Made by a program: the position numbers and the translations under genes. A stretch of 32,000 nucleotides of DNA from an uncultured archaeon (GTDB taxonomy: Archaea > Asgardarchaeota > Jordiarchaeia > Jordiarchaeales > Jordiarchaeaceae), in the NCBI GenBank assembly GCA_964510585.1, contig CAZECW010000090.1, positions 1 to 32,000 on the forward strand, given 5' to 3'. The notes below the pieces were generated by a model that was not told where the DNA came from, searched no databases, and saw nothing but the letters and a program-made list of their open reading frames with translations. Shown piece by piece: positions 172 through 17,171 of the stretch. Numbering within the stretch: position 1 is the first letter of the stretch; every line of letters starts with the position of its first letter.

Positions 172-1404
172 TTGTTCATGTCTACTGAAGATGTAGATAA
201 GATGATGAAGGATTATCGGGAAAAGATTTTGGCTTCAAGAACTCGATACCAAAAATTCGTAGACATTTTCTCCTTCGTTCCCATTACGGTGTACTTCTTT
301 TCGATGGTTATCTTCACGATTTCAATCGGAGCGGGGCTTACCGCCTTGGAACATCTATTGAGGCCTTCATTGTGGTTGGGTAGTCCCACCCTCTTACCCG
401 ATTTTCAGCAGAGCGTTCTTATACATCTGTGGTTCGTAAATCCAATACCAACAATATGGAGTCAGTCGCCATGGAATGCGGCGGCCATTAGTGTGTTAAT
501 TGGCTTGGCACTGTTTGCGGTATATTTCATCTCGAGACGTATTGCTTATAAGGAAATCTTTTACCTTGACTTGGGTTTCTTGTCCTTCTTTCTTTTGGGG
601 TTAATTTTAATGTTTGTAACTCCCAACCTATTCAGCACGCTCTATTATTGTTTTCCGGGTCCACTGATTTTCGGTCTACTGGCGATTCCCGCTTGGATCA
701 CAATAGCAGCTAAAAGACCTTTTACTCATCAGTTTTCTGACCGAGTTATTCCCCCTATAATTAGGGAACTGGATATTTACAAGAAAATTCATTACATTAT
801 CGCTTCTGTCTGGGGTATGGTTTTCACAATTAACGCCATTCTGGGCTATCTCACTTATTATGCACCCTCAACGAAGCCATTGTGGGCGGCTCTATTCTTT
901 ACGCCTCTGTTCTTTTTGATTTATGCGTGGGCTTTCACTGTTCACTTTCCCGCATGGTATAGGCGGAGAGTTACGAAAACACCATTAAAAAAGGCCTCGA
1001 GACCATTGCCACGCCTGGTGAGAATAGTGGGAGTGGCCCTGATACTATTCGCAGTGTTAATTCTCTTGTTGAATCTTGGTCAGATATCCTACATATTGGG
1101 AATTTTAGAAATTATTGTTGCCGTAATTCTCATGGCTGCCGGCGTAGGAATAGTTCTGGTTAAGAAGTGGAGCTGGTATCTAACAGTGGGTGGGCTTGCT
1201 TCCCATATTGTTCTCGTATGGCTGGCTTATGTTTTTCCCAACGTTGGCTTAGTTGATTGGATAACCTCAATTAACAATTTCTTGTATAATCTCTCCTTCG
1301 CAGCTCCCTCCGAGAATTTACTGTTTCTAGCTGTAATTCTCTCAGGCATCTCATCAGTGTTCTTGTGCTACTTGTTCCCCAAGCGAAACCACTATATCTT
1401 TTAG
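172..1404 (+). CDS. Multi-pass membrane protein of unknown function (paralog A)
   Basis: 410 aa with roughly 10-11 hydrophobic segments. AGGAGGA RBS at 160-166; the likely start is ATG 178 by comparison with paralog B. The central PFTxQ...IYKKIHY..IAxVW segment resembles widespread uncharacterised membrane-protein families. Confidence 0.85.
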   Translation: MFMSTEDVDKMMKDYREKILASRTRYQKFVDIFSFVPITVYFFSMVIFTISIGAGLTALEHLLRPSLWLGSPTLLPDFQQSVLIHLWFVNPIPTIWSQSPWNAAAISVLIGLALFAVYFISRRIAYKEIFYLDLGFLSFFLLGLILMFVTPNLFSTLYYCFPGPLIFGLLAIPAWITIAAKRPFTHQFSDRVIPPIIRELDIYKKIHYIIASVWGMVFTINAILGYLTYYAPSTKPLWAALFFTPLFFLIYAWAFTVHFPAWYRRRVTKTPLKKASRPLPRLVRIVGVALILFAVLILLLNLGQISYILGILEIIVAVILMAAGVGIVLVKKWSWYLTVGGLASHIVLVWLAYVFPNVGLVDWITSINNFLYNLSFAAPSENLLFLAVILSGISSVFLCYLFPKRNHYIF

Positions 1405-1551: not shown

Positions 1552-2781
1552 ATGTCTGCTTCCGATGATGTAGACAAGATGATGCGTGATTATCGGGAAA
1601 AAGTTTTGGCTTCGAGAACACGTTTCCAAAGGTTTGTAGATTTCTTTGGTAAAATTCCTATGCCCACTTACTTTGTGGTCATGTTTACTGGAGTCTTTTT
1701 AACGGGTTCCAGACTGAACTCCCTTGATCTTATTCTTAGGTCTCTTGTGATTCTTAACAGTCCTGACCTTTTAACTGGTTTTCAGCGGAGCGTCTTTATA
1801 CATTTATGGTTCATACCTCCCATTCCCGCTGAGTGGAATTCGTCTCTCCTGGTTCCAGGGGTGACCAGTGTTGTGGTGGGCTTTACACTATTCATAGTTT
1901 ACTTCGTTTCTAGGCGTGTGGCATACAAACAAACATACTATGTTGACCTAGGTTTCCTAGGATTCTTTTTGCTGGGTATAACTTTGCTGTTTATCTCTCC
2001 AAAAATATTTGCAACACTTTACTATTATTATCCTGCCACTCTGGTATTCCTATTTTTGGCTGTCCCCACTCTCATATCAATAGTTGCCAGGAAGCCTTTC
2101 ACCCTTCAGCACGTTGAGAGAATTTATCCTCCATCGATTAGGCAACTTGATATTTACAGAAAAATACATTATAGAGTCGCCGCCTTCTTTCTCATAGTCT
2201 TCATTATTAATGCTGCAGTTTTCTACTTCAGATTCATTTTTCCCACCGCTTCACCGGTTTTCACCGTCGTATTCTTCATGGTGTTCTACTTCCTAATTCT
2301 GGCTTGGGCCTTTATGACGCATTTTCCAGGATGGTACCGCCGTAGAGTACTAAAAACCCCCCTGAAAAAACCATTGGACCCCCTCCCCAACAGGGTAAAA
2401 ATAGCTGGGGCCCTACTGATAATTTACGGACAACTGACCTTAATAGTTGGACTCGTGCTGTCAACTACAACATTCACAGTCCTAACTTATATTATTGCCA
2501 TTGCCCTCATAATCTCCGGTGTAGGAATAATTCTGGTTAAAAAGTGGGGCTGGTACCTGACCATAGGCACACTCACATCACAGATTATCATATTCTGGTT
2601 AGCGTGGGGTTTTACCCCTCACAGTTTAACTGAATGGTTATCTTCAATTGGCACCTTCCTTGCAACCCTCTCCTTCTACCCACCGTCAGACAGCCTACTA
2701 AGCCTCTCCCTAATATTTACAGTAATTTCCACAGTATTCCTTTGCTACCTGTTCCCAAAAAGAAACTACTACCTACTTTAG
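1552..2781 (+). CDS. Multi-pass membrane protein of unknown function (paralog B)
   Basis: 409 aa, colinear with 172..1404. They share DVDKMMxDYREKxLASRTR, IHLWF, KPFT, YRKIHY, HFPxWYRRRVxKTPLKK, VKKWxWYLT and CYLFPKRNxY. AGGAGG RBS present. Confidence 0.87.
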   Translation: MSASDDVDKMMRDYREKVLASRTRFQRFVDFFGKIPMPTYFVVMFTGVFLTGSRLNSLDLILRSLVILNSPDLLTGFQRSVFIHLWFIPPIPAEWNSSLLVPGVTSVVVGFTLFIVYFVSRRVAYKQTYYVDLGFLGFFLLGITLLFISPKIFATLYYYYPATLVFLFLAVPTLISIVARKPFTLQHVERIYPPSIRQLDIYRKIHYRVAAFFLIVFIINAAVFYFRFIFPTASPVFTVVFFMVFYFLILAWAFMTHFPGWYRRRVLKTPLKKPLDPLPNRVKIAGALLIIYGQLTLIVGLVLSTTTFTVLTYIIAIALIISGVGIILVKKWGWYLTIGTLTSQIIIFWLAWGFTPHSLTEWLSSIGTFLATLSFYPPSDSLLSLSLIFTVISTVFLCYLFPKRNYYLL

Positions 2782-2899: not shown

Positions 2900-4048
2900 T
2901 TGGAGGTGTTTTGTTTGCCTCTAAAGATGCATGAAAAAGAGACCATGACTCCTAGGGAGAGAATGGAAACTGTTTTAAATCTACGTGAACCTGACCGTGT
3001 CCCTATTATAGCCTCCTTCCACGCGGCTCAGGCTAGATTAACTGGGATGACCATAGAGGAATTTTTCTTCAATATACCAAAATCCTATGAAGCCACAAAG
3101 AAGGTTTGGGAAATGTTTGGCGGCTTCGATGTGTACACTGGCTGTTCCCCCATTCTTGGTTACTATCTCCCGTGGCCCAATTCTCACAGCATGGTTTATT
3201 TTGATTGGACTCTTCCAAAGGGTAATATTCCCGAGCAGATGCATGAGAAGGAGCTCATGAAGCGTAGCGACTATGATCTAGTAATTGAAAAGGGTTTTGC
3301 TCCCTTTAAGAGGAGACCAGAATTAGAGAAGGACTTTATGAATTATGTGGCGCAGTTCGCAGCATTGGACACTAATAAATGGCTTGAGGAGATGGATGTC
3401 CCATCCCTGTTTGTTGGAGCCATAGAGCCCCCAGTAGATGTTATATCTTTTCTGAGAAGCTTTAACAAGTATCTTACAGATGTGGTGGAGATTCCTGATA
3501 AGGTTGTGGAGGCCTGTGAGGCTACAGTGGATGAAATGCTTGCCACCCTAGACGTGCAAATCCAGTTCCTGAGCGGTGAAAAAGGTCCAAAAGCAGTTCT
3601 CTACGGATTTTCACGCGTAGCATCAAGTTTTATTTCCCGCAAAAAGTTTGAACTATTCTGGCCCCACCTCAAAAGAATCGCGGAAGCCATCATAAGTAAA
3701 GGGTGTATCGTACAGTTCCACCTAGATAATGATTACACAGATTTTCTAGAATACTTCACAGAATTTCCTAAGGGTAAAACTTGGTTCCACCTAGACCAAA
3801 CAGACATATTTAAGGCCAAAGAAATCCTTGGAGATAGAGCGTGCCTAATGGGGAACTTGCCTCCCCAGATAACCGGCCTAGGCTCACCTAAAGAGGTGGA
3901 AGATTACTGTAGAAAACAGATAGAAGGCTGTATGGAAGGCGGAGGCTACATACTTTGCTCCTCATGTGTGCTTCCCGATGACGTTCCCGCCGCAAATATT
4001 AAAGCCATGAAGGACGCTGTAATGAAATACGGCTTCTACCGAGCCTAA
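2900..4048 (+). CDS. UroD/MtaA-superfamily protein, putative corrinoid-dependent methyltransferase (HLD-type)
   Basis: N-terminal MTPRERM...EPDRVP and C-terminal GNLP...GSPKEVEDYCRKQI...GGGYILCSSC..P..VP.ANIKAM are typical of the UroD-like TIM barrel. It carries FHLDND where MtaA has HxC. GGAGGTG at 2902-2908 favours TTG 2915 as the start. Confidence 0.8.
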   Translation: MEVFCLPLKMHEKETMTPRERMETVLNLREPDRVPIIASFHAAQARLTGMTIEEFFFNIPKSYEATKKVWEMFGGFDVYTGCSPILGYYLPWPNSHSMVYFDWTLPKGNIPEQMHEKELMKRSDYDLVIEKGFAPFKRRPELEKDFMNYVAQFAALDTNKWLEEMDVPSLFVGAIEPPVDVISFLRSFNKYLTDVVEIPDKVVEACEATVDEMLATLDVQIQFLSGEKGPKAVLYGFSRVASSFISRKKFELFWPHLKRIAEAIISKGCIVQFHLDNDYTDFLEYFTEFPKGKTWFHLDQTDIFKAKEILGDRACLMGNLPPQITGLGSPKEVEDYCRKQIEGCMEGGGYILCSSCVLPDDVPAANIKAMKDAVMKYGFYRA

Positions 4049-4098
4049 TCCCAAAACAATCTCCAGACAAAAGTACTATTTCTATTTGGAGCGGGTAT

Positions 4099-4808
4099 GT
4101 GTTGCTTTATCGTGATTCCGTCTTAGAAGCCCAGAAGCTATATTACGATATGATTCTAGAATCTGGTTTCCCTGTAAAGGAACTTAAACCAGAAGACTTG
4201 GAAGCAGTTGACTTCGGTCTAAGCAATGGGGAACCTGACTACTTTAAAAGGGGAGTCTTGGAATATACGTACTAGTAAACGAGACCGAATGCGGAAAAAT
4301 TTTATGCTTCCTCCCAAACCATTACGTGCCAGAACATCGCCACCAATCGGTGGTAGTTATGCCCAAAGGCTCCAAAATTGAGAAGGGCTACATCGATTTA
4401 AAGAAACTTGGTTTTAAGGGTTTAGACGAATTTGGGGAAGAGGCTGTCTATATGGTGCCAGAAAAAGAGAACACTTCCATTCCCAAGCGGGGTATTCTCA
4501 TCTCCGGCAAACAGGAATACTTCCACACCATAAAGGGCACCGGCTTAATGTTTTTACTAGGAAAACCCACTGACAAACCCACCTACCCTATACCCGAAGA
4601 GCATCGTCCCCACAACATCGCACTACATAAAGTCTTCCTAGAGCCAGGCGCTGGATTCCATCTGGACGCCAAAGCGCCACACAGTGTAGTTGCAGGACCT
4701 GAGGGCCGAATAGTTATAGAGTTCTCTCTGAAAAGTAGGGATCCTCTAGACATATTCACGAATCCCAAAATAGACAGAATCACCCACATAGAAGAATGCC
4801 CAAAATGA
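4099..4808 (+). pseudogene. D-lyxose/D-mannose ketol-isomerase (YdaE-type cupin), split by a 1-nt frameshift at ~4243-4253
   Basis: GTG 4099 (GGAG RBS) opens VLLYRDSVLEAQKLYYDMILESGFPVKELKPEDLEAVDFGLSNGEPDYFK, which stops at TAG 4273-4275. The -1 frame from 4248 reads KGSLGIYVLVNETECGKILCFLPNHYVPEHRH...GKQE...PHSVVAGPEGRIVIEFSLKSRDPLDIFTNPKI. Together these match the YdaE family pattern DxGL...N....C.K.L..P.Q..PEHxH...KxE...H...EFS..S.D..DIFTDP. The ORF track shows only 4326..4808. Confidence 0.8.
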
Positions 4809-4809
4809 A

Positions 4810-7512
4810 TTGAGCGAAGTGGTAACCGTGAAAAGGAGAAATGAATCCATTCTGGTTTCTCATACTCACTGGGATAGAGAATGGTACAAACCTTTCCAAA
4901 CTTTCCGAGGATATATGGTGGAAATGATTGACCGCCTGATAGACCTGATGGAGAAAAATCCTGACTATAAGCATTTTTTGCTAGACGGTCAATCCATTCT
5001 TCTTGAGGACTACTTTGAGGTACGGCCCGAAAATAAGGAACGTATACGTGCTCTCGTCAGTTCGGGCCGTTTAAGTGTTGGTCCCTTTTATGTTCTACCA
5101 GACATGTTTTTGGTCTCCGCCGAATCTATTGTGCGGAACTTGCTTCTGGGCATAACGACTGCCGAAGAGTATGGAGGGGCTCAAAAAATAGGTTATCAGC
5201 CGGATTGCTTTGGACAAATTGCTCAAACTCCCCAAATAATGAAGGGGTTTGCCTTTAAAGGATTCGTTTTCTGGAGGGGTTTGGGGGATGAAATGGACTT
5301 TCTTCCAACAACTTTTCTTTGGGAAGCTCCCAGCGGAGACCGCATACTTACTCACCAGATTGCAATTGGCTACTTTAATGTGGGTGACCTTCCCCAAGAT
5401 ACAGATGCCGCCATTACACTAATTGAAAAAACAAAAAATATGCTCCAAGAAAGAAGCAACAGAAACTTCCACCTGTTTCTTAATGGGCATGACCATGCGT
5501 TTCCCCAAGGGAACGTGCCTCAAATCATAAAGGCCTATAATGAGAAGCATCCCGATGAGCCAATAAAGTATGGAAGTTTGCAAGATTTTTTCAACCAGCT
5601 TGAAGAAAACACGCATGACCTACCCGTTTACAAGGGAGAGTTCCGGGGGGCACGCATGTTTCCCGTTTTACCCGGGGTTCTATCCGCCCGCATATACTTA
5701 AAACAAGCAAATCACAGATGCCAAACAAAACTGGAGAACTATGCGGAGCCCTTCTCCGCCTGGGCATGGTTCCTGGGGGAAAACTATGATAGGAGTTACC
5801 TTTGGCTAGCTTGGAAGTGGCTTCTTGAAAATCATCCCCACGACAGTATTTGCGGGTGTTCCATTGACCAAGTTCATAGGGAGATGGAAACTCGTTTCGC
5901 TTGGAGTGAACAGATAGCTGATCTACTCACACTAAAAGCGATGGAACGTATAGCGTCAAAAGCAACAGTTTCTGGTGAGGGATTCCCCATAGCGGTCTTT
6001 AACCCCTCCCCCTGGAAGAGAACTGGAGTTGTGGAATTCCTCTCAGAGCCTTTTCCACCCTTCACCTTTAACAGTCAACAATTTACCTTCAACCCCTCCC
6101 TCCTTAAGAGTTTGGATTTCAAGCCAGACCGCAACTTCTGTGTCGTAGACCATGAGGGAAGAAGTCTTCCCGTGGAGTTATTTGAAGAACCCGAGAACTA
6201 TGCGTTCCGATTTTTCGAGAATATGACACGTTGTACTCTGAGGTTCCTTGCCACAGATGTTCCCGCCTGCGGATACAAAATACTATACATAAAAGAGGGG
6301 AAAGCGGAGGATGTAAACTCATCTCTCAGAGTTAATGTCAAGGAGAGAATAATTGAGAATGAACATTTGAGAGTCAAGTTTAACCCGAATGGCACAATGG
6401 ACGTAACAGAACTATCAAGTGGTGTCACATTCGCCGGACTGCACATGTTTGAGGATGTGGGTGATAATGGTGACGAGTATAATTACTCTAAACTCAAGGA
6501 AGACGAGATTATTACCAGCGAAAATCTTGATGCTGAAATTTCGTTTGTGGAGCACCCCACAAGAGTGGATGCAATAGTGAAGATGGAGATGCTTCTCCCA
6601 AAAAGTTTAGAGGAGGGGAACCGTAATCGCCGCTCCCGCGAAAGGATACCTCTAAGAATAACTTCGATAATATCCCTCTTCCCTGGCTCCAGATTTGTTA
6701 ACTGTAAGACAGAAATCGAAAACATTGTCAAGGACCACCGTCTAAGAGTGCTCTTCCCTACAGGCATAAAGTCTGATGTTGTCCATGCTGATGGACACTT
6801 TGGAGTTGTTGAGAGAAGTCTGAAACTTCCAGATGACACCAACTGGATGGAGATACAAACCACAGCAAACCACCAAAACCTCTTCGTAGACATAAATAAT
6901 GGAGAAAAGGGCTTAGCCATAGCAAACAAGGGACTGCCTGAATACGAAATTTATGGGGAAAACGAGAGAACCATAGCCTTAACTCTTGTACGTTCAGTAG
7001 GCTGGCTGTCAAGAAACATAGACCATAACAACCGCAAAATCTTCGGAGGCCCAGCAATACCAACACCAGAAGCCCAATGCCAGAGGCGCCTTACAGTAGA
7101 ATATGCAGTAATACCCCACTCCGGAGACTGGGAGGAAGCAATGATTCCCAGAATAGCCAGAGAATTCGCCTATGATTTAAAGGCAGTTGAAGTCAAGAAC
7201 CCCCTACACAAGTTGCCCGCCTCCACAAGCTTTCTAGAAGTTGAACCCCCATCAATAGTTCTCTCCGCGGTTAAAAAAGCCGAGAAGGAGGAGGCCCTAA
7301 TCATTCGCATATACAACACTGGAAAAGAACAAAATGCGACAATTACCCTCAGTAAACCAGTGAAGTCAGCTAAAGTAACCAACCTCGCAGAGTATGAAAT
7401 AAATATGGAGAATTCAGTTTCAATAAAAGATAACAGAATCACAATAGAAAACATTTCACCATCAAAAATTGTAACATTAAAAATTCACACCGCAGACCAA
7501 CAAACTCTTTAA
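4810..7512 (+). CDS. Glycoside hydrolase family 38 alpha-mannosidase (MngB/mannosylglycerate-hydrolase-like)
   Basis: 900 aa. Zn-binding SHTHWDREWY, LLDGQ, nucleophile region YQPDCFGQIAQTPQI, HPHDSICGCSID, and C-terminal DHRLRVLFP, LTLVRSVGWLSR and LSAVKKAE motifs. TTG start lies 1 nt after the upstream stop. No signal peptide seen. Confidence 0.93.
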   Translation: MSEVVTVKRRNESILVSHTHWDREWYKPFQTFRGYMVEMIDRLIDLMEKNPDYKHFLLDGQSILLEDYFEVRPENKERIRALVSSGRLSVGPFYVLPDMFLVSAESIVRNLLLGITTAEEYGGAQKIGYQPDCFGQIAQTPQIMKGFAFKGFVFWRGLGDEMDFLPTTFLWEAPSGDRILTHQIAIGYFNVGDLPQDTDAAITLIEKTKNMLQERSNRNFHLFLNGHDHAFPQGNVPQIIKAYNEKHPDEPIKYGSLQDFFNQLEENTHDLPVYKGEFRGARMFPVLPGVLSARIYLKQANHRCQTKLENYAEPFSAWAWFLGENYDRSYLWLAWKWLLENHPHDSICGCSIDQVHREMETRFAWSEQIADLLTLKAMERIASKATVSGEGFPIAVFNPSPWKRTGVVEFLSEPFPPFTFNSQQFTFNPSLLKSLDFKPDRNFCVVDHEGRSLPVELFEEPENYAFRFFENMTRCTLRFLATDVPACGYKILYIKEGKAEDVNSSLRVNVKERIIENEHLRVKFNPNGTMDVTELSSGVTFAGLHMFEDVGDNGDEYNYSKLKEDEIITSENLDAEISFVEHPTRVDAIVKMEMLLPKSLEEGNRNRRSRERIPLRITSIISLFPGSRFVNCKTEIENIVKDHRLRVLFPTGIKSDVVHADGHFGVVERSLKLPDDTNWMEIQTTANHQNLFVDINNGEKGLAIANKGLPEYEIYGENERTIALTLVRSVGWLSRNIDHNNRKIFGGPAIPTPEAQCQRRLTVEYAVIPHSGDWEEAMIPRIAREFAYDLKAVEVKNPLHKLPASTSFLEVEPPSIVLSAVKKAEKEEALIIRIYNTGKEQNATITLSKPVKSAKVTNLAEYEINMENSVSIKDNRITIENISPSKIVTLKIHTADQQTL

Positions 7513-7784
7513 TTTCCACTTATCCCCTTCAATATATTGATGGCTGGAGAAGTAAAATGGTATTAGCCACTCACCTCCTAGCTTGATTTTGGAATTATCC
7601 CCTCAAGATTCAGTTGCCAAATAGGGCTTAAACTGTAAAAAATAAAAAGGATATAATGTCTCTTATTTCACCGACAATTGTTTGGATAAGAGGCATAATT
7701 TCTGCATTAGGTTGCCGCTTCCGGCTATTAGTGGAGTTTATTCCCTTGTATTCCGAATTGTGAACTTTAGTTTTTCTTCACTTT

Positions 7785-8831
7785 TTAGTCGAGTTGTATG
7801 GGATATTTTCCATATTCTCTGGCTGCTTCCATGAAGGCTCTCAGATTTTCTAGAGGAGTATCTGGTGGTACCTCGCATCCTGTGGCGAGCATGTACATTC
7901 CACCTGGGGCTGCTTGACGTATGCACTCCTTAACAGCCTGTTTCACATCTTGTGGTGTGCCCTCCAGCATGACTTTGACTGGATCTACGTTTCCCACAAG
8001 AACCACTCTGCCTGCAATCTTTTTCTTGGCTTCTGCAAGGTTGACTGGGGCGTCTATGCTAAGCATTGCGGGGCCCAGTTCGACGAGCTTGTCTATGAGG
8101 TGGCTTACGTCGCCACATACATGTAACGCGCAGAATTTTCCCTCAGCTGCCCAGGTTTTGATTACCTTTTTTAGGGCGGGGGCTGCAAACTTGTCGAATT
8201 GTTTGGGTGAGAGTGTGCCTGCTACGGGGTCTCCGAGGTTTAGCCCCAATCTAACTTCGGTTTGTGCTCTTCCCTCCTCAATGGCGAAATCTGTGGTTAT
8301 ATCCAGCATTTCCTGAACGTAGTCTGGGTTCTGTACAAGGTCCTTGTAAAAATTTTCCGGGCCCCTCAGAGCTGTGAGAAGGGAGATGGGGCCTGCGACA
8401 AGTCCGCCTACGCCTGCAACTTTTCTCAACTCGTTGGTTACTATTTCGCCAGCTTTGAGAATGTTGGGCAGCCTGCCGTCTTTTCTTGGGTCAGGCATTC
8501 GTATATTTTTAACGTCTTTCTTCAAATCTTTTACCGGGAAGTCTACTACCTCTGGGAGCCTATCCTCATGGAATTTTATTTTGCAGCCAAAAGCTTCGGC
8601 TTCGACGAGGGTGTCACCTAGGACAAGTACTACGTCTGGGGTGTATAGTTTGTATGCCTTAATAATGGCGTGGGCCATTGTTTCGGGATCAGTTATAAAC
8701 TCTTTTATGGGTACTCCTGCAAGTCTCGCGTTTCCCGCTCCCACGGAGGGGTAAGCTGGAACCCTATCTGGTTCCTGCCTGAGGAAAACTCTCTTCATTC
8801 TCTCTCTTACGGTTAACTCTTCACCAGACAT
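7785..8831 (-). CDS. MtaA/MtbA/CmuA-family methylcobalamin:thiol methyltransferase (UroD superfamily)
   Basis: 348 aa. EPDRVP; EAEAFGCKI; DPRKDGRLP; canonical Zn ligands LHVCG (HxC) and LATGCEVP (distal Cys); GNVDP. GGAGG RBS; 35 nt downstream of a corrinoid protein gene. Confidence 0.88.
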   Translation of the reverse strand: MSGEELTVRERMKRVFLRQEPDRVPAYPSVGAGNARLAGVPIKEFITDPETMAHAIIKAYKLYTPDVVLVLGDTLVEAEAFGCKIKFHEDRLPEVVDFPVKDLKKDVKNIRMPDPRKDGRLPNILKAGEIVTNELRKVAGVGGLVAGPISLLTALRGPENFYKDLVQNPDYVQEMLDITTDFAIEEGRAQTEVRLGLNLGDPVAGTLSPKQFDKFAAPALKKVIKTWAAEGKFCALHVCGDVSHLIDKLVELGPAMLSIDAPVNLAEAKKKIAGRVVLVGNVDPVKVMLEGTPQDVKQAVKECIRQAAPGGMYMLATGCEVPPDTPLENLRAFMEAAREYGKYPIQLD

Positions 8832-8866
8832 GATTTATTTAACCTCCAATACCTCGCGTCCTTTTT

Positions 8867-9505
8867 TTATCCTAAGAGTTCTTTAGCCTTTTGGACTGCT
8901 TCCCGCGCGTCTTTTCCATAGGCATCGGCGCCAATTTTTTCAGCGAAATCTTGTGAGGTGGCGGCGCCTCCTATTAGGATTTTAACACTTTCTCTTAGTC
9001 CCTCGCTATCTAGAGCCTTTATGGTGTTAATCATTTCAGCCCTAGCTGACGAGATAATTCCGGACATGGCTAGAATGTCTGGTTTATGCTTTTTAACATT
9101 CTCTACGAAGGTTTCTGGGGGAACGTTTTCACCAATGTCAATTACCTCAAATCCAGCTGACTGTAACATTATTTTAACTATGTTTTTGCCTATGGTGTGT
9201 ATATCTGTATAAGCGGTGCCCAGTAGCACCTTGCCGTGTCCGCTCGTCCTTTTCTCTTTAAGGTGCGGTTCCAGTATCTCTAAAGCTGCAGACATGGTTT
9301 CAGCCGACATTAAGACGTCAGAAATAAAGTATTCCTTATTACCAAACTTTTCCCCAACAACTTCTATGCCCTTCATTAGTCCTTTAGTTAGAGCATCGTA
9401 GGCATCTATTCCCTGTTCTAAAGCCTCTTTTGCTGCTTCCCTTGCAAGGTCCACGTTAGCCTCTATTACTGCGGTTGAAAGCTTTTCAAAGATCCTTTCG
9501 GCCAT
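8867..9505 (-). CDS. Methyltransferase corrinoid (B12-binding) protein 1
   Basis: 212 aa. Cap domain GLMKGIEVVGEKF...EYFISDV; B12 motif DIHTIGKNIV (DxHxxG); MSG; LIGGAA; IGADAY. AAGGAGG RBS. Confidence 0.92.
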   Translation of the reverse strand: MAERIFEKLSTAVIEANVDLAREAAKEALEQGIDAYDALTKGLMKGIEVVGEKFGNKEYFISDVLMSAETMSAALEILEPHLKEKRTSGHGKVLLGTAYTDIHTIGKNIVKIMLQSAGFEVIDIGENVPPETFVENVKKHKPDILAMSGIISSARAEMINTIKALDSEGLRESVKILIGGAATSQDFAEKIGADAYGKDAREAVQKAKELLG

Positions 9506-9568
9506 CTGCAGTCCTCCTTCTGACGCGAGAAGTTTTTAATAAATTGTATTTTTACCTCTACTAATCAG

Positions 9569-9586
9569 TATTATAAACTTTTGTCC
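9569..9586 (-). promoter_or_regulatory. BRE/TATA promoter of the corrinoid protein-methyltransferase pair
   Basis: The minus strand reads GGACAAAAGTTTATAATA about 65 nt upstream of ATG 9505, so this pair has its own promoter, separate from the sulfatase-like gene. Confidence 0.55.
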
Positions 9587-9638
9587 AATAAATAGTATGA
9601 ATCATAAAAACCAAAAAATAAATAATTTTTTAGAAGCT

Positions 9639-11036
9639 TTACAGAAGCCCCTCCATTTTGTACCATTCCTCAGCTGCTTTGGACATAACTTCCCTGTGGT
9701 CTATTAGTTCCCCGCCTGCGTCTTGGAGAATCCTTTGAAACATTATGTCTGCTATGTCGCGGTTTTCCTCTACAATGTTCTGGGTCTGGTTTGGATCCTT
9801 TCTCAAATCGTAGAGGTATTCTCTGCTCCTAGAATAATTCGCTATATACACCCATTCTTTGTCTCTTGTCCAGACATAACCGTTGAAGCCAGAGGTTGCG
9901 TAGCTTCGCGCCTTCCGCTCTCCGTCTATTAGAGTCCAGAGCTCTTCTCCGTCTAATGGTGTGGGAGGTTCTATTCCGAGGTATGTTAAAATGGTGGGTA
10001 CTATGTCGTGATTGTATACGAAGCCTGAAACGCGTTTACCACCTTTAAATCCTTGGGGGTGCCGAATGAAAAGCGGTATATCTACTAATTCGGGATAGAG
10101 GCCTCTGGGAATCTTACCTATTAAGTTATGCTCACCCAACTGGTGCCCATGGTCAGATGTCAGCACCACTAGTGATTTATCCAGCAGTTCCAGCTCCCTC
10201 ATTTTTTCTAAAAATTTCCCAAGCCAAGAATCAACCATTGTGACTTCGGCTGCATAGAGTGCCTTCATGTATCTCAACTCTTCGGGTGTGAGATAATCAA
10301 CACTCGTTGAGTAGTTGGGTGTGATGACTTCTCTACCAGTGTAGGGTGGATGGTAAAGGTCTCGGTATTTTTGGGGCGGATCCCAGGGCTCGTGGGGGTC
10401 AAATGAATCAATAAAGAGGAAAAATTTCTCAACATCTTTGTTTTCTTCTATCCACTTGGCTGCGGCGCTAAATACTTGGGGCGCGAAGTAGTCCTCCTCT
10501 TTTCGGCGTTCTGAAATGTTTTTGAGATACTGTGGAAGTATTGTCATCATGTGGTCACATTTTCCGCTCTGTGGTATGTAGCGTTCCAATTGTTTGGGGT
10601 CAATTTTGGGTGCAGTTTTGTAAGGGTCTGCTTCCTGGCCTCTTATTAACTGCCACTGATGGTATCCTCGATGAAAATTCATGCTCGGCTTGAAGTAGTG
10701 ATACGTGTCTGTTATGAAGGTGGTGGTGTAACCGTTTCTGCGTAGAATCTCGGCAATGGTGTTTTGCGAGTCTGGAATAGGTTGCCACCCGTAAGCTTGA
10801 ACCATATCTCCCCTGCAGGGATGGTACTCCTTGAAGGGGAAGGTGCGGATTCCCGTATGTATTGATCTTCTGAAGGGAATTGTTGGTAGAGATTCGGGAT
10901 GTGCGTCTTCAAATATGATGCTCTCTCTGGCTAGGGCATCTAGATTAGGTGTCTTTATCCAACTGTTTCCGTATATTCCTATGTGGTCTTTTCTCAGAGT
11001 GTCAAGGAGGATTACTACTACATTCAAGCCCTTCAC
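9639..11036 (-). CDS. Sulfatase-like hydrolase (alkaline phosphatase superfamily) with Thr at the nucleophile position
   Basis: 465 aa. NVVVILLDTLR.DH, TPNLDALA, PTIPFRRSIHTG (TxPxR in place of C/SxPxR), DPHEPWDPP, YAAEVTMVD, TSDHG..LGEH..IGK, LYDL..DP..T.N. Confidence 0.85.
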   Translation of the reverse strand: MKGLNVVVILLDTLRKDHIGIYGNSWIKTPNLDALARESIIFEDAHPESLPTIPFRRSIHTGIRTFPFKEYHPCRGDMVQAYGWQPIPDSQNTIAEILRRNGYTTTFITDTYHYFKPSMNFHRGYHQWQLIRGQEADPYKTAPKIDPKQLERYIPQSGKCDHMMTILPQYLKNISERRKEEDYFAPQVFSAAAKWIEENKDVEKFFLFIDSFDPHEPWDPPQKYRDLYHPPYTGREVITPNYSTSVDYLTPEELRYMKALYAAEVTMVDSWLGKFLEKMRELELLDKSLVVLTSDHGHQLGEHNLIGKIPRGLYPELVDIPLFIRHPQGFKGGKRVSGFVYNHDIVPTILTYLGIEPPTPLDGEELWTLIDGERKARSYATSGFNGYVWTRDKEWVYIANYSRSREYLYDLRKDPNQTQNIVEENRDIADIMFQRILQDAGGELIDHREVMSKAAEEWYKMEGLL

Positions 11037-11178
11037 ACCAGCTTTTATAACTGGGAAAACAATTGGTTCTATCCAAATTCCAATGATTAAACTAAGCCGC
11101 TAATTTCCGGAGCAATACTTTAATCTAATCTGTTTAAAAATATATTTTCATTAAAAACTAATCTTTCGACTCGAAAAG

Positions 11179-11817
11179 GTGATAATTATGACTGCTCAGC
11201 TCGTTGAAGCTATGGCTAACCTAGAGAGGAGCGCTGTACTGGATAATGTGGAAAAGGAAATTAAGAAGGGCACAGACCCCCTAAAAATAATAGAAAGCCT
11301 CTCTCAAGGATTAAAAATTGTGGGTGACCTTTACGATAAAAAGGAATATTTTCTAGCGGAGCTTATAACCGCCGGAGACATTTTTCAAAATGCTTTTCAA
11401 AAAATAAAACCCGTACTGGAGAAAAGGGGCCTTAAAACCCAAGTCCAAGGAAAAATAGTCATAGGAACAGTGCGCGGAGACCTACACGACATTGGAAAAA
11501 ACATCGTCATCACCATGCTTGTTTCATCTGGATTCTTCGTGGAAGACCTAGGAGTCGATGTACCTGCCGAAAAATTCATAGAAGCAGTAAAGAGAATAGA
11601 CGCAAAAATTCTGGCCATGTCAGCCCTCCTCACAGTGGCACTAGACGCCGCAAAAGAAACAATTAAACTGCTAGAAAAAGAAAACCTCAGAAACAAAGTA
11701 AAAGTCATCTGCGGAGGCGCCGCTTTCGACGAAAACACCGCCAAAAGAATCGGCGCCGACGCCTACGGAAAAGATCCCCTGGACGCAGTAAAAATCTGCC
11801 AAAAACTCCTCCAGTAA
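11179..11817 (+). CDS. Methyltransferase corrinoid (B12-binding) protein 2
   Basis: 212 aa. GLKIVGDLY...EYFLAEL; GTVRGDLHDIGKNIV; DLGVDVP; MSALL; ICGGAA; IGADAYG. GGTGA RBS; divergent from the sulfatase-like gene. Confidence 0.92.
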   Translation: MIIMTAQLVEAMANLERSAVLDNVEKEIKKGTDPLKIIESLSQGLKIVGDLYDKKEYFLAELITAGDIFQNAFQKIKPVLEKRGLKTQVQGKIVIGTVRGDLHDIGKNIVITMLVSSGFFVEDLGVDVPAEKFIEAVKRIDAKILAMSALLTVALDAAKETIKLLEKENLRNKVKVICGGAAFDENTAKRIGADAYGKDPLDAVKICQKLLQ

Positions 11818-11998: not shown

Positions 11999-13168
11999 CT
12001 AAAATCCTCTCATAATAGGTTCATATTCCTTGAAAAGATACCGGGATATAACGTAGCGCTGAATCTGAGATGTGCCCTCATAGATTTGGAAAAGCTTGGC
12101 ATCCCTAAACAGTTTAGCAATACGGTAATTCTCCAAATAACCACGGCCACCGTAGACCTGTAGGGCGTCAGTGGCAATCTTCATAGAGTCCTCAGAGCCG
12201 ACAAGCTTGGCTACACTGGCTGCTGTGTTGGCCTCTCGGTCTCCCCTGTCCACGAGCCAAGCAGCCTTCCAAGTCAGTAGGCGCATAGCTTCTATACGAG
12301 CATACATATCCGCCACCATTTGCTGAATTGCCTGAAAACTTGAGATCTTGTGCTCAAAAGCTTCCCTCTGCTTAGCGTAGTTGATAGCATACTCCATGGC
12401 GGAACGAGCCAAGCCCGTTGCAAAGGCACCAATAGCTGGACGGGTACGCATAAATGTGGCCATAGCCAGCAGGAAACCAACACCCTCCTCACCCAGCCGG
12501 TTTTCAACAGGAACGCGAACATTTCTAAGAATTACCGCTGCAGTGTCAGATGCTCGATGCCCCAGTTTCTCAAGAGGTTTACCAGTAGACAATCCCTCAC
12601 TCTCACGCGGAACAACAAAGGCACTTAAACCTTCATGGCGCTTTGTGCCCTTAAGCCGAGCAAAAATCACATAGTAACTGGCAAAATCACCGTTAGTTAT
12701 CCAAAACTTGTTCCCATTCAAAACGTACTCGTCACCCTGACGCTCATAGGTGGCTTTAATACCTGCCACATCACTCCCCATTCCTGGTTCTGAAGTTGCG
12801 AAGGATATGAATTTGAGTTCCTTCGTGAGTGGCGTTAAAAATTTCCGCTTCTGTTCTTCTGTGCCGGCAAGAATTATAGGTTCCGCTCCCAAATCGTTGG
12901 CGTACATTGAGGTTGCTATTCCCGGGTCGGCTGCCGCAATCTCTTCAACTACAAGCACCGACTCAAAGGATCCATAGCCCTGTCCACCGTACTGTTTGGG
13001 TATTCCCAAATTCATAAGGCCGGCTTTGAAGGCCTTTTCATAAATGGGTAGTGGAAATTCCCCACTTTTATCATATTTTGATGATACTGGAATTATTTCT
13101 TCCAATGCGAATTTGCGTGCCTTTTCGCGCAGAGCAATCTGCTCCTTAGATAGCTCAAAATCTACCAT
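11999..13168 (-). CDS. Acyl-CoA dehydrogenase
   Basis: 389 aa. FELSKEQ; FATSEPGMGSD; LNGNKFWITNG; KLGHRAS; QREAF..KI..FQAIQ; GGRGY....; RDAKLFQIYEGTSQIQR (catalytic Glu in YEG). GGAGG RBS. Confidence 0.95.
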   Translation of the reverse strand: MVDFELSKEQIALREKARKFALEEIIPVSSKYDKSGEFPLPIYEKAFKAGLMNLGIPKQYGGQGYGSFESVLVVEEIAAADPGIATSMYANDLGAEPIILAGTEEQKRKFLTPLTKELKFISFATSEPGMGSDVAGIKATYERQGDEYVLNGNKFWITNGDFASYYVIFARLKGTKRHEGLSAFVVPRESEGLSTGKPLEKLGHRASDTAAVILRNVRVPVENRLGEEGVGFLLAMATFMRTRPAIGAFATGLARSAMEYAINYAKQREAFEHKISSFQAIQQMVADMYARIEAMRLLTWKAAWLVDRGDREANTAASVAKLVGSEDSMKIATDALQVYGGRGYLENYRIAKLFRDAKLFQIYEGTSQIQRYVISRYLFKEYEPIMRGF

Positions 13169-15389: not shown

Positions 15390-15863
15390 ATGCCTGCTAT
15401 GAATGCTTTTCAAATATACAAGCTTTTACCGCAAACAAATTGCGGTAAGTGTGGAGAAGCAAATTGTATGGCTTTCGCTGTTCAGTTGCTTAGTGGTAAA
15501 AAAAAGCTTGAGGCTTGCACGCCACTCTTTCAGGAACCGAAGTATGCGGATAAATTAAAGCAGCTTCAAGAAATATTCACCGTAACCGACGAGGTTAAGG
15601 AAACAGGACTGGTATTCCATGAGGACAAATGTACTGGTTGTGGAAATTGTGTCATGGTATGTCCTGAAGACGTTGCTGCTTCCCCACTTATTGCGGGTGG
15701 TAAGGGCTCCCGTGCTGATGGGGTGGTGTTTCGTGTGGAGAATGGGAAGGCTAAAATAATTGATTTAACTAAGTGTAGGAGGATGGGTACTCAGAAGACT
15801 TGTCGTGTCTGTGAAATGTATTGTGGTGCGGGTGCCATTGAGATTCGTTCGGTTGGTGGTTAA
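15390..15863 (+). CDS. fwdG: Formylmethanofuran dehydrogenase Fe-S subunit FwdG-like
   Basis: N-terminal IYKLLPQTNCGKCGEANCMAFA...C Fe-S domain, plus CTGCGNCVMVCP and C...CRVCEMYC ferredoxin motifs. Ends 3 nt before fwdB. Confidence 0.75.
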   Translation: MPAMNAFQIYKLLPQTNCGKCGEANCMAFAVQLLSGKKKLEACTPLFQEPKYADKLKQLQEIFTVTDEVKETGLVFHEDKCTGCGNCVMVCPEDVAASPLIAGGKGSRADGVVFRVENGKAKIIDLTKCRRMGTQKTCRVCEMYCGAGAIEIRSVGG

Positions 15864-15866
15864 TCT

Positions 15867-17171
15867 ATGGCAAATTTTGTTCCAACTGTGTGTGTGGGGT
15901 GTGGTCTTCTCTGTGATGACATTGAAGTTAAGGTTGAGGGGGGCAAAATTGTTTCCACACTTCATACCTGTGCCCGGGGAGAGTGGACTCTGCGTAGAGC
16001 CCATAGCAATTCTCGTTTAACTTCACCACTAATTAAAAAGAATGGAAAATTGGTGAAGGTCTCTTTTGAGGATGCTTTGAGCCGTGCGGCTGAGATTCTT
16101 TCGGAGGCGGAGCGTCCACTCTTGTGGGGTTGGAGTTCTGCAAGTGTCGAGGCTCAGCGTTTGGGGATTCTTTTGGCCCAGCGTTTGGGTGGAGTTATTG
16201 ACAGCACTTCTTCCATATGTCACGGTTCTAGTATCTTGGCGGGGAGGGAAGCTGGTTTTAGAACTGCTACCTTGGGGGAAGTTAAAAATCGTGCGGACTT
16301 AATAGTTTACTGGGGTAGTGATCCTAGTCACAGTCATCCCCGTCACCTGAGTAGGTATACCATAATTCCGCGTGGAATCTATACTCAGATGGGTTACGAG
16401 CAGAAACAGCTGGTTATAGTTGATGTGCGTAAGTCTCGTACCGGTAAGGTAGCTAACCAGATTCTTGAGGTGGAGCCCAATAAGGACTATGAACTTATTT
16501 CTGCGATGAGAATGGTTCTCAAGGGTAAAAATATTAGGGACAAAGAAGTTGCCGGGATTCCAGTTAAGGTCATAAATCAGGTAATTCAGACTTGGAAAAC
16601 TCGGCAGTTCGGGGTTATTTTTGTGGGGTTAGGGCTCTCTATGAGTAGGGGTAAGTATCGCAACATAGAAGTTTTATACAAATTGGTTCAGGAACTAAAT
16701 GATTACACTCGTTTTGTAGCGATTCCCATGGCTGGACATTATAATATGGTTGGATTTAACCATGTGGCTACGTGGCTTACTGGTCACCCGTTCGGAATTG
16801 ACGCCAGTAGGGGAAACATATACTCAAATCCAGGGGAGACTACTGGAGCTGAAATTATTATGCGGGATGAATTCGACGCTATGTTGGTTTTAGCCTCCGA
16901 CCCTATCTCTACGATGCCCTTACCTATAGCGCGAAAAATTACTAGAAAACCCTTGGTGGTGGTTGATTGTTTAGAAACTCCCACAACCAAGATTGCAGAC
17001 GTTGTTCTACCCGCCGCAATGACTGGCATAGAGGTTGAGGGAACCGCCTACAGGATTGATTCGGTGCCAATAAGGCTTAAGAAGTTCTTGGAGCCCCCCA
17101 GGGACTGTAAATCTGACGAGGAGATTCTGTCTCTTCTGATTTCAAAAATTGAAAAACTGGGTAAAAAATAG
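15867..17171 (+). CDS. fwdB: Formylmethanofuran dehydrogenase subunit B (Mo/W-bis-pterin catalytic subunit)
   Basis: CVGCGLLCDDI...C; SSICHG (Cys metal ligand, not Sec); TLGEVKNRADLIVYWGSDP..SHPRHLSRY; PMAGHYN; EGTAYRIDSVP. Confidence 0.92.
   Translation: MANFVPTVCVGCGLLCDDIEVKVEGGKIVSTLHTCARGEWTLRRAHSNSRLTSPLIKKNGKLVKVSFEDALSRAAEILSEAERPLLWGWSSASVEAQRLGILLAQRLGGVIDSTSSICHGSSILAGREAGFRTATLGEVKNRADLIVYWGSDPSHSHPRHLSRYTIIPRGIYTQMGYEQKQLVIVDVRKSRTGKVANQILEVEPNKDYELISAMRMVLKGKNIRDKEVAGIPVKVINQVIQTWKTRQFGVIFVGLGLSMSRGKYRNIEVLYKLVQELNDYTRFVAIPMAGHYNMVGFNHVATWLTGHPFGIDASRGNIYSNPGETTGAEIIMRDEFDAMLVLASDPISTMPLPIARKITRKPLVVVDCLETPTTKIADVVLPAAMTGIEVEGTAYRIDSVPIRLKKFLEPPRDCKSDEEILSLLISKIEKLGKK

Follow-up and report, generated by a model that had tools for sequence, protein, structure and literature searches.

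A cognate UroD-type methyltransferase and corrinoid protein pair with recurrent carbohydrate-gene neighbours in Asgard archaea

Several described methyl-transfer systems combine a methyltransferase of the UroD superfamily with a small corrinoid protein. In the chloromethane:corrinoid system of Acetobacterium dehalogenans, CdmB (9RUI), a UroD TIM-barrel methyltransferase I (MT-I), acts with the separate small corrinoid protein CdmC (PMC13222342). The MtoB/MtoC/MtoA/MtoD system of Methermicoccus shengliensis and the MtvABC, Odm and Vdm systems of acetogens comprise a UroD-type MT-I, a corrinoid protein of ~22 kDa, an MtrH-type second methyltransferase (MT2) that delivers the methyl group to a pterin, and a RACo-type activase; they are encoded by single operons and act on aromatic methyl ethers (PMC8630106). 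Here, we analysed a 32,000-nucleotide (nt) stretch of DNA (contig CAZECW010000090.1, positions 1 to 32,000, hereafter the window) from a hot-spring Asgard archaeon of the Jordarchaeia/Freyarchaeia type. It encodes a UroD-superfamily methyltransferase that resembles MT-I enzymes, named here UroDL (2900..4048, + strand), together with its cognate carrier, corrinoid protein 2 (11179..11817, + strand). Genes were called from a listing of open reading frames (ORFs) and from Pfam and NCBIfam scans of the window.

Like CdmB and CdmC, UroDL and corrinoid protein 2 are a TIM-barrel protein of the UroD type and a separate small corrinoid protein. However, CdmB has 429 residues with N-terminal extensions, a hydrophobic channel and no metal (PMC13222342), whereas UroDL (likely start, the ATG at 2927) has ~373 residues with a His-Asp-Cys triad that is invariant, and sugar genes, rather than a CdmA-type MT2 gene, are found beside it. 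The four component types of the Mto, Mtv, Odm and Vdm systems are also present in this genome. Unlike in those operons, the genes for the methyltransferase and its carrier are 7 kb apart, MT2 and activase genes are on other contigs, and nowhere in the window are all four components found together. The MtaA/MtbA methylcobamide:coenzyme M methyltransferases (4AY7) have the same fold as UroDL, which scores far below their family cut-offs and has Asp for the first Cys of their motif; the protein encoded at 7785-8831 is close to that family and has its His-x-Cys...Cys motif.

A preliminary description of the window, made from the sequence, had proposed a corrinoid-type methyltransferase at this position, and the database comparisons bear this out by placing UroDL in the MT-I sector of the superfamily. 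In this placement CdmB was compared by sequence, and MtoB, MtvB, OdmB and VdmB were located from the literature, where they fall in the same sector as CdmB together with uncharacterised clades; CdmB homologues also occur in Asgard archaea (PMC13222342). CdmB is the best match of UroDL in a PDB sequence search (E 9e-26, 94 bits), restricted to the C-terminal half; MtaA (4AY7) was found with E 3e-4 and 23 bits. The Pfam URO-D model (84 bits) also covers the C-terminal half only (residues 171-377), and the NCBIfam MtaA/MtbA models gave 59, 45, 40 and 25 bits for cut-offs of 244, 400, 235 and 600 respectively. The AlphaFold2 model of UroDL (pLDDT 94.8) has the UroD/MtaA fold. When it was compared to the PDB with Foldseek, MtaA and UroD were the top matches (TM 0.62-0.73), MtaA coming first (TM 0.66-0.73), and CdmB was not among the PDB matches. 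About 1,500 homologues of UroDL are present in databases.

Residues H274, D276 and C356 are invariant in 28 UroDL orthologues, and many of the other invariant residues are polar or charged. The three residues align with the His-x-Cys...Cys motif of MtaA, which we take to be its zinc ligands, with Asp replacing the first Cys. In a related family with 35-40% identity to UroDL, these positions are occupied by His, Asp and Glu, Glu replacing the third residue, and in a pairwise alignment with UroDL none of the three UroDL residues is found at the corresponding positions of CdmB. This enzyme binds no metal (zinc), while some O-demethylase MT-I enzymes contain zinc (PMC13222342). From its sequence, UroDL probably works in the MT-I direction, from the substrate to Co(I), and the His-Asp-Cys triad is a putative metal site.

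UroDL and corrinoid protein 2 form a cognate pair

In order to compare genomic contexts, up to 20 kb were fetched round each UroDL orthologue and the window proteins were mapped onto them. About 20 of the 400 Asgard genomes contain an orthologue (65-98% identity), as do 13 metagenome contigs, and a further scan of genome contigs revealed no UroDL locus beyond these. Nine loci, which belong to two other families or to metagenomes (L034-L037, L039, L041, L042, L054 and L055), have a corrinoid protein gene within ~30 nt downstream of the UroDL orthologue. The proteins encoded there share 61-66% identity with corrinoid protein 2 but only ~38% with corrinoid protein 1 (8867..9505, - strand). When four of them were searched against this genome, corrinoid protein 2 was the best hit (275-294 bits, the next one at most 182 bits) and the reciprocal best hit holds. 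Corrinoid protein 2 contains B12-binding domains and carries the DxHxxG motif, in the form DLHDIG, at residue 101. Because the orthologues of the two genes directly adjoin outside the Jordarchaeia/Freyarchaeia-type lineage, UroDL and corrinoid protein 2 are a cognate methyltransferase-carrier pair, which the preliminary description had missed. It is corrinoid protein 2, and not corrinoid protein 1, that partners UroDL.

In the window, the two genes keep the same order and strand but are ~7 kb apart. The interval holds an isomerase gene, a gene for an alpha-mannosidase of glycoside hydrolase (GH) family 38, an MtaA-like gene, the gene of corrinoid protein 1 and a sulfatase-like gene. These data show that, in the Jordarchaeia/Freyarchaeia-type lineage, an insertion of ~7 kb has separated the two genes. 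A cognate carrier is now identified for a methyltransferase clade that is uncharacterised and widespread in Asgard archaea, and the two proteins together make a target for biochemistry.

The related 35-40% identity family (L071-L084), which is common in Loki-type genomes, also has a corrinoid gene abutting the methyltransferase gene in 10 of its 14 loci and two genes away in one further locus. There the corrinoid gene is directly upstream, often with an overlap of a few bases, so that the order is reversed relative to UroDL.

A sister family of the same order (G112-G116) has a UroDL orthologue (70-73% identity) that is located among thiolase, DUF169, C_GCAxxG and Fe-S genes, without a corrinoid protein 2 orthologue (best match 49% identity) and without GH38. 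Locus L069 (DATKTP010000257.1), labelled Candidatus Deferrimicrobium, corresponds to contig G123:C257, with UroDL coordinates that agree. As genome G123 is grouped in the phylum of the window, the label is probably a binning or naming error.

Carbohydrate genes beside UroDL

UroDL is followed in the window by a cupin-type D-lyxose/D-mannose isomerase homologue (4099..4808, + strand) and by a cytoplasmic-type GH38 alpha-mannosidase (4810..7512, + strand). The gene positions of the preliminary description and its intergenic gaps, 50 nt between UroDL and the isomerase (4048 to 4099) and 1 nt between the isomerase and GH38 (4808 to 4810), were found to be correct. The three genes, hereafter the trio, are probably co-transcribed.

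The isomerase had been recognised as a YdaE-type enzyme, and PDB sequence matches to the D-lyxose isomerases of Thermofilum (7NZO, E 4e-26) and Bacillus (YdaE, 2Y0O, E 3e-21) uphold this identity. The His-x-His, Glu and His positions of the metal-binding motifs are conserved with respect to both structures (PEHRH, GKQE and PHS), although the window protein has an insertion of ~55 residues. No Pfam or NCBIfam model matches the two halves of the window protein, and no Pfam model (E 0.001) matches an intact orthologue. What did not stand is the integrity of the gene: in this assembly it is split between two frames (4099-4275 and 4248-4808) by a frameshift near 4253. Where the window has GGG-GAG, the five relatives that were aligned carry one base more (GGGTGGG or a close variant), and each of them keeps the isomerase in one uninterrupted frame. 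A programmed -1 frameshift was considered and rejected in view of this additional base and of the single frame of the relatives; moreover, the site is not a canonical slippery heptamer. Within the Asgard phylum, the isomerase is almost confined to this genus.

GH38 contains four Pfam GH38 domains and matches PDB entries 3LVT, 5KBP and 2WYH with E values of 1e-122 to 1e-131. Its similarity to the Streptococcus pyogenes alpha-mannosidase (2WYH) and to the E. coli MngB family is clear and the metal-binding motifs are retained, but the score against the NCBIfam mannosylglycerate hydrolase model (MngB equivalog) is 624 bits for a cut-off of 1138. The gene is single-copy in this genome and widespread in Asgard genomes (309/400).

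The trio is kept in five genomes of the genus and on five Jordarchaeia-type metagenome contigs, with UroDL identities of 81-98% and GH38 identities of 74-94%. In these loci it remains tightly spaced and co-directional while adjacent genes are lost. It is absent round the UroDL orthologues of four other Asgard families. The preliminary description had made its proposal depend on a wider conservation of this synteny; we find that it does not extend beyond the Jordarchaeia/Freyarchaeia-type lineage. A general link between the UroDL family and GH38 was likewise rejected, no contig being common to the listed matches of the two.

Carbohydrate genes nevertheless recur beside UroDL orthologues, on separate branches of the UroDL tree. 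In one Loki genus, a GH3 gene is located 60 nt upstream of the UroDL orthologue on the same strand. On L057, a second GH3 (37% identical to the Loki one), an MFS_2 sugar transporter and a sulfatase are encoded beside it, and on L056 a gene for a xylose-isomerase-like TIM barrel starts 20 nt downstream. In the related family, a single gene separates one member from a GH116 gene. The wider association with carbohydrate breakdown that had been proposed from the trio draws independent support from these GH3, transporter, sulfatase and isomerase-like neighbours and from a corrinoid-GH3 pair in this genome, whereas the specific trio is restricted to one lineage. Sulfatase or alkylsulfatase genes are present near UroDL-type genes on L057 and L071.

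Two further juxtapositions are found in this genome. At C121:29288-35070 (L096:5289-11071), a corrinoid protein gene runs directly into the only GH3 gene of the genome, which is followed by genes for an isochorismatase-family protein, a PaaK-like ligase and an ADP-forming CoA ligase; two UroD paralogues are divergent upstream. Of the five other members of the genus, at least four have the corrinoid and GH3 genes paired in this way; in G121, the contig ends within the locus. At C39:210-3661 (L100), a GH1 gene lies 1.35 kb from an MtaA-like UroD gene and is divergent from a metallo-beta-lactamase-fold gene and the UroD gene. Altogether, of the 10 GH genes tested in this genome, which cover six GH families only, 3 have a UroD or corrinoid gene no more than 1.5 kb away, compared to 1.8% of the ORFs of the genome (binomial P 7e-4 in this post hoc count; 0.011 when GH38, from which the observation started, is excluded).

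Candidate substrates of the UroDL/corrinoid protein 2 pair

The locus is best explained as three modules: a methyl-harvesting pair (UroDL and corrinoid protein 2), a mannoside module (the isomerase and GH38) and an opposite-strand module made of the sulfatase-like gene and the variable MtaA-like/corrinoid protein 1 genes. From gene context, we tentatively favour, at somewhat less than an even chance, a carbohydrate-derived O-methyl compound as the methyl donor of the pair. UroDL would take up a methylated substrate and present its methyl group to Co(I) on corrinoid protein 2. The resulting methyl-Co(III) would be unloaded by an MT2 encoded elsewhere, MtrH-type genes being present, and a RACo activase, also encoded elsewhere, would re-reduce the cofactor. 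GH38 may free mannose from imported mannosides, possibly taken up through the two membrane proteins encoded upstream, and the isomerase would convert mannose to fructose. In the Jordarchaeia/Freyarchaeia-type lineage, the likeliest donor would be an O-methylated form of mannose or of a mannoside, and demethylation would make the sugar usable by the isomerase. The His-Asp-Cys site perhaps holds a metal that activates the ether oxygen.

The most specific form of this proposal would make UroDL and corrinoid protein 2 the first O-demethylase of methylated sugars (in this case O-methyl-mannose or its glycosides) to depend on a corrinoid and not on oxygen. The His-Asp-Cys metal site would activate an alkyl methyl ether, and the enzyme would unblock methylated glycans and feed the methyl group to one-carbon metabolism in Asgard archaea. 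We consider this form rather unlikely as it stands, and 3-O-methylmannose or a similar compound is a purely speculative choice of substrate. Its consequences would be considerable. Methyl ethers on sugars block glycan breakdown, and the sole demethylation route found in the literature searched needs oxygen. It relies on the P450 6-O-methyl-D-galactose demethylase of marine bacteria, which is encoded among glycan-degrading genes (PMC6292453) and would be a functional analogue of UroDL, although it is oxygen-dependent and differs in fold and chemistry. A B12-dependent sugar or glycoside demethylase would be the anaerobic counterpart of the P450 route and would extend the UroD-type methyltransferases by a new class of substrate and a new variant of the metal site. 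In the archaea most closely related to eukaryotes, it would also connect the degradation of carbohydrates with methyl-group (Wood-Ljungdahl) metabolism.

Several observations weigh against a methylated-sugar substrate. The trio is confined to one lineage, its isomerase is frameshifted in this assembly, and GH38 and a mannose isomerase are self-sufficient: mannosylglycerate or plain mannosides would be enough for them and no methyl chemistry is needed. About half of the independent UroDL contexts contain no carbohydrate gene; the neighbours are thiolase, DUF169 and Fe-S genes in the sister family, and peptidase genes, purine genes or a short-chain dehydrogenase/reductase gene in others. The 24 best Asgard GH3 matches from outside the genus include a single one with UroD as a neighbour at up to 1.5 kb, and a general link between Asgard GH3 and corrinoid genes was therefore rejected as a rule. 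The GH enrichment was counted post hoc. The CoA ligases of the C121 locus are of the aryl-acid type, and methoxylated aromatic aglycones therefore fit this locus better than methyl sugars. Finally, our literature search found no biochemical precedent for corrinoid-dependent demethylation of an alkyl (sugar) methyl ether and no paper that ties corrinoid methyltransferases to methylated sugars.

Many of these observations would be accommodated if the neighbours shared no substrate. UroDL and corrinoid protein 2 would then harvest methyl groups from an unrelated small compound, the isomerase and GH38 would be an independent insert for the salvage of mannosides or mannosylglycerate, and the other GH juxtapositions would mirror the large number of UroD paralogues. 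This is a distinct possibility, if not a probable one. The restriction of the trio to one lineage, the half of UroDL contexts that are non-carbohydrate and the 1 in 24 GH3 loci with a UroD neighbour all agree with it, as does the near absence of the isomerase from other Asgard genomes, which suggests a recent acquisition. GH38 is common in Asgard archaea without a nearby member of the UroDL family among the matches listed, and 17 UroD genes and at least 17 corrinoid protein genes in one genome leave room for chance proximity. What chance explains less well is that at least three independent juxtapositions, with different GH families, occurred within one orthologous clade, that the enrichment within the genome reaches P values of about 1e-3 to 1e-2, and that the trio was kept tight and co-directional while adjacent genes were lost.

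A carbohydrate link without a methylated sugar is also conceivable. The GHs could act on phenolic glycosides and free methoxylated aromatic aglycones, and UroDL/corrinoid protein 2 would demethylate the aglycone instead of the sugar, as an aryl methyl ether O-demethylase similar to MtoB or MtvB. All the characterised O-demethylating MT-I enzymes of the superfamily named in PMC8630106 and PMC13222342 indeed use aromatic methyl ethers. At the corrinoid-GH3 locus of C121, the PaaK-like ligase, ADP-forming CoA ligase and isochorismatase-family genes would suit such a substrate, and AMP-binding ligase genes are found near the two closest paralogues of UroDL, one on C32 and one on C62. The GH3 and GH116 families include aryl-beta-glucosidases. 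We nevertheless judge this explanation unlikely for UroDL, whose own partners are sugar-processing (the mannose isomerase, GH38, the MFS_2 transporter and the xylose-isomerase-like barrel) and are not aromatic-ring genes. To our knowledge, alpha-mannosides of methoxylated aromatics are uncommon as natural products. In addition, the identity to CdmB is low and limited to the C-terminal half, and many invariant residues of UroDL are polar or charged.

That UroDL is no MT-I at all, the sugar neighbours being irrelevant and the enzyme being either an MT2 that unloads methyl-corrinoid protein 2 to a thiol or another acceptor or a methanol- or halomethane-using protein like CdmB, is improbable: Foldseek does place its fold closest to MtaA, His, Asp and Cys are retained at the MtaA motif positions and CdmB is the nearest solved relative by sequence, but the motif is His-x-Asp instead of His-x-Cys, the MtaA/MtbA models score 25-59 bits against cut-offs of 235-600, CdmB lacks the triad residues and binds no zinc, and the locus already encodes an MtaA-like protein whose motif is complete.

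Other genes of the locus and methyl-transfer genes elsewhere in the genome

The genome contains 17 UroD genes, at least 17 corrinoid protein genes, three MttB genes, at least four MtrH genes and two RACo activase genes. As stated in the preliminary description, the window has no MttB-family gene and no RACo/RamA-type activase gene; we found the former on C158, C187 and C99 and the latter on C99 and C33. For MtaB and MtmB, no Pfam-scanned ORF matched, and no search was aimed at either family. The MtrH and RACo genes are all outside the window (contigs C99, C33, C29, C208 and C71), so that an MT2 and an activase are available in trans. At C99:9008-14158 (L097), MttB-like, corrinoid protein, RACo activase and MtrH genes are found in a row and apparently make up a complete four-component module. 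Orphan MT-I/carrier pairs, UroDL and corrinoid protein 2 among them, are likely to draw their activase and MT2 from this module.

Among the genes inserted between UroDL and corrinoid protein 2, the MtaA-like gene (7785..8831, - strand) encodes an MtaA/MtbA-like methylcobamide methyltransferase of the MT2 type. The Pfam URO-D model covers it over its full length (250 bits), and its HVC at 237-239 together with C319 constitutes the His-x-Cys...Cys motif; it scores 205 bits against PRK06252 (cut-off 244) and 195 bits against TIGR01463 (cut-off 235) in NCBIfam. Corrinoid protein 1, which has B12-binding and B12-binding_2 domains and DIHTIG at residue 101, is the partner of the MtaA-like gene, the two being present or absent together. 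Both are missing in the genus members G117 and G118 and on the metagenome contig L050. On L052 (4853-5023), a 58-residue C-terminal remnant of the MtaA-like protein abuts the sulfatase-like gene and corrinoid protein 1 is absent. This remnant looks like a deletion scar, indicating that the MtaA-like/corrinoid protein 1 pair was lost there rather than never present. The pair is a variable insert, which had also escaped the preliminary description.

The sulfatase-fold hydrolase (9639..11036, - strand; Pfam Sulfatase) reads T-I-P-F-R, with Thr at the formylglycine position instead of the Cys or Ser of the C/S-x-P-x-R motif. It is the sole match to two sulfatase queries in the ORF set of the genome, and in all genus-level loci long enough to show it, its gene adjoins corrinoid protein 2.

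Upstream of UroDL, two polytopic membrane proteins of ~410 residues are encoded in tandem, paralogue A (172..1404, + strand) and its copy paralogue B (1552..2781, + strand), which are ~50% identical to each other. They have no Pfam or NCBIfam match and no usable relative in the ESM Atlas. The translation of paralogue A contains many hydrophobic spans and this protein is a possible transporter. On Jordarchaeia-type contigs with enough upstream sequence, the UroDL orthologue is preceded by two or three tandem copies. The closed genome G117 has three copies, and the placement upstream of UroDL was seen only in the Jordarchaeia/Freyarchaeia-type lineage.

On the other side of the locus, an acyl-CoA dehydrogenase gene (11999..13168, - strand; three acyl-CoA dehydrogenase domains in Pfam) adjoins corrinoid protein 2, and the gene is also present in L031, L046, L047 and L050. 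It is a conserved neighbour in the genus and is not counted here as part of the methyl-transfer system. Further downstream, an Fe-S protein and a molybdopterin oxidoreductase are encoded as a pair at 15390-17171.

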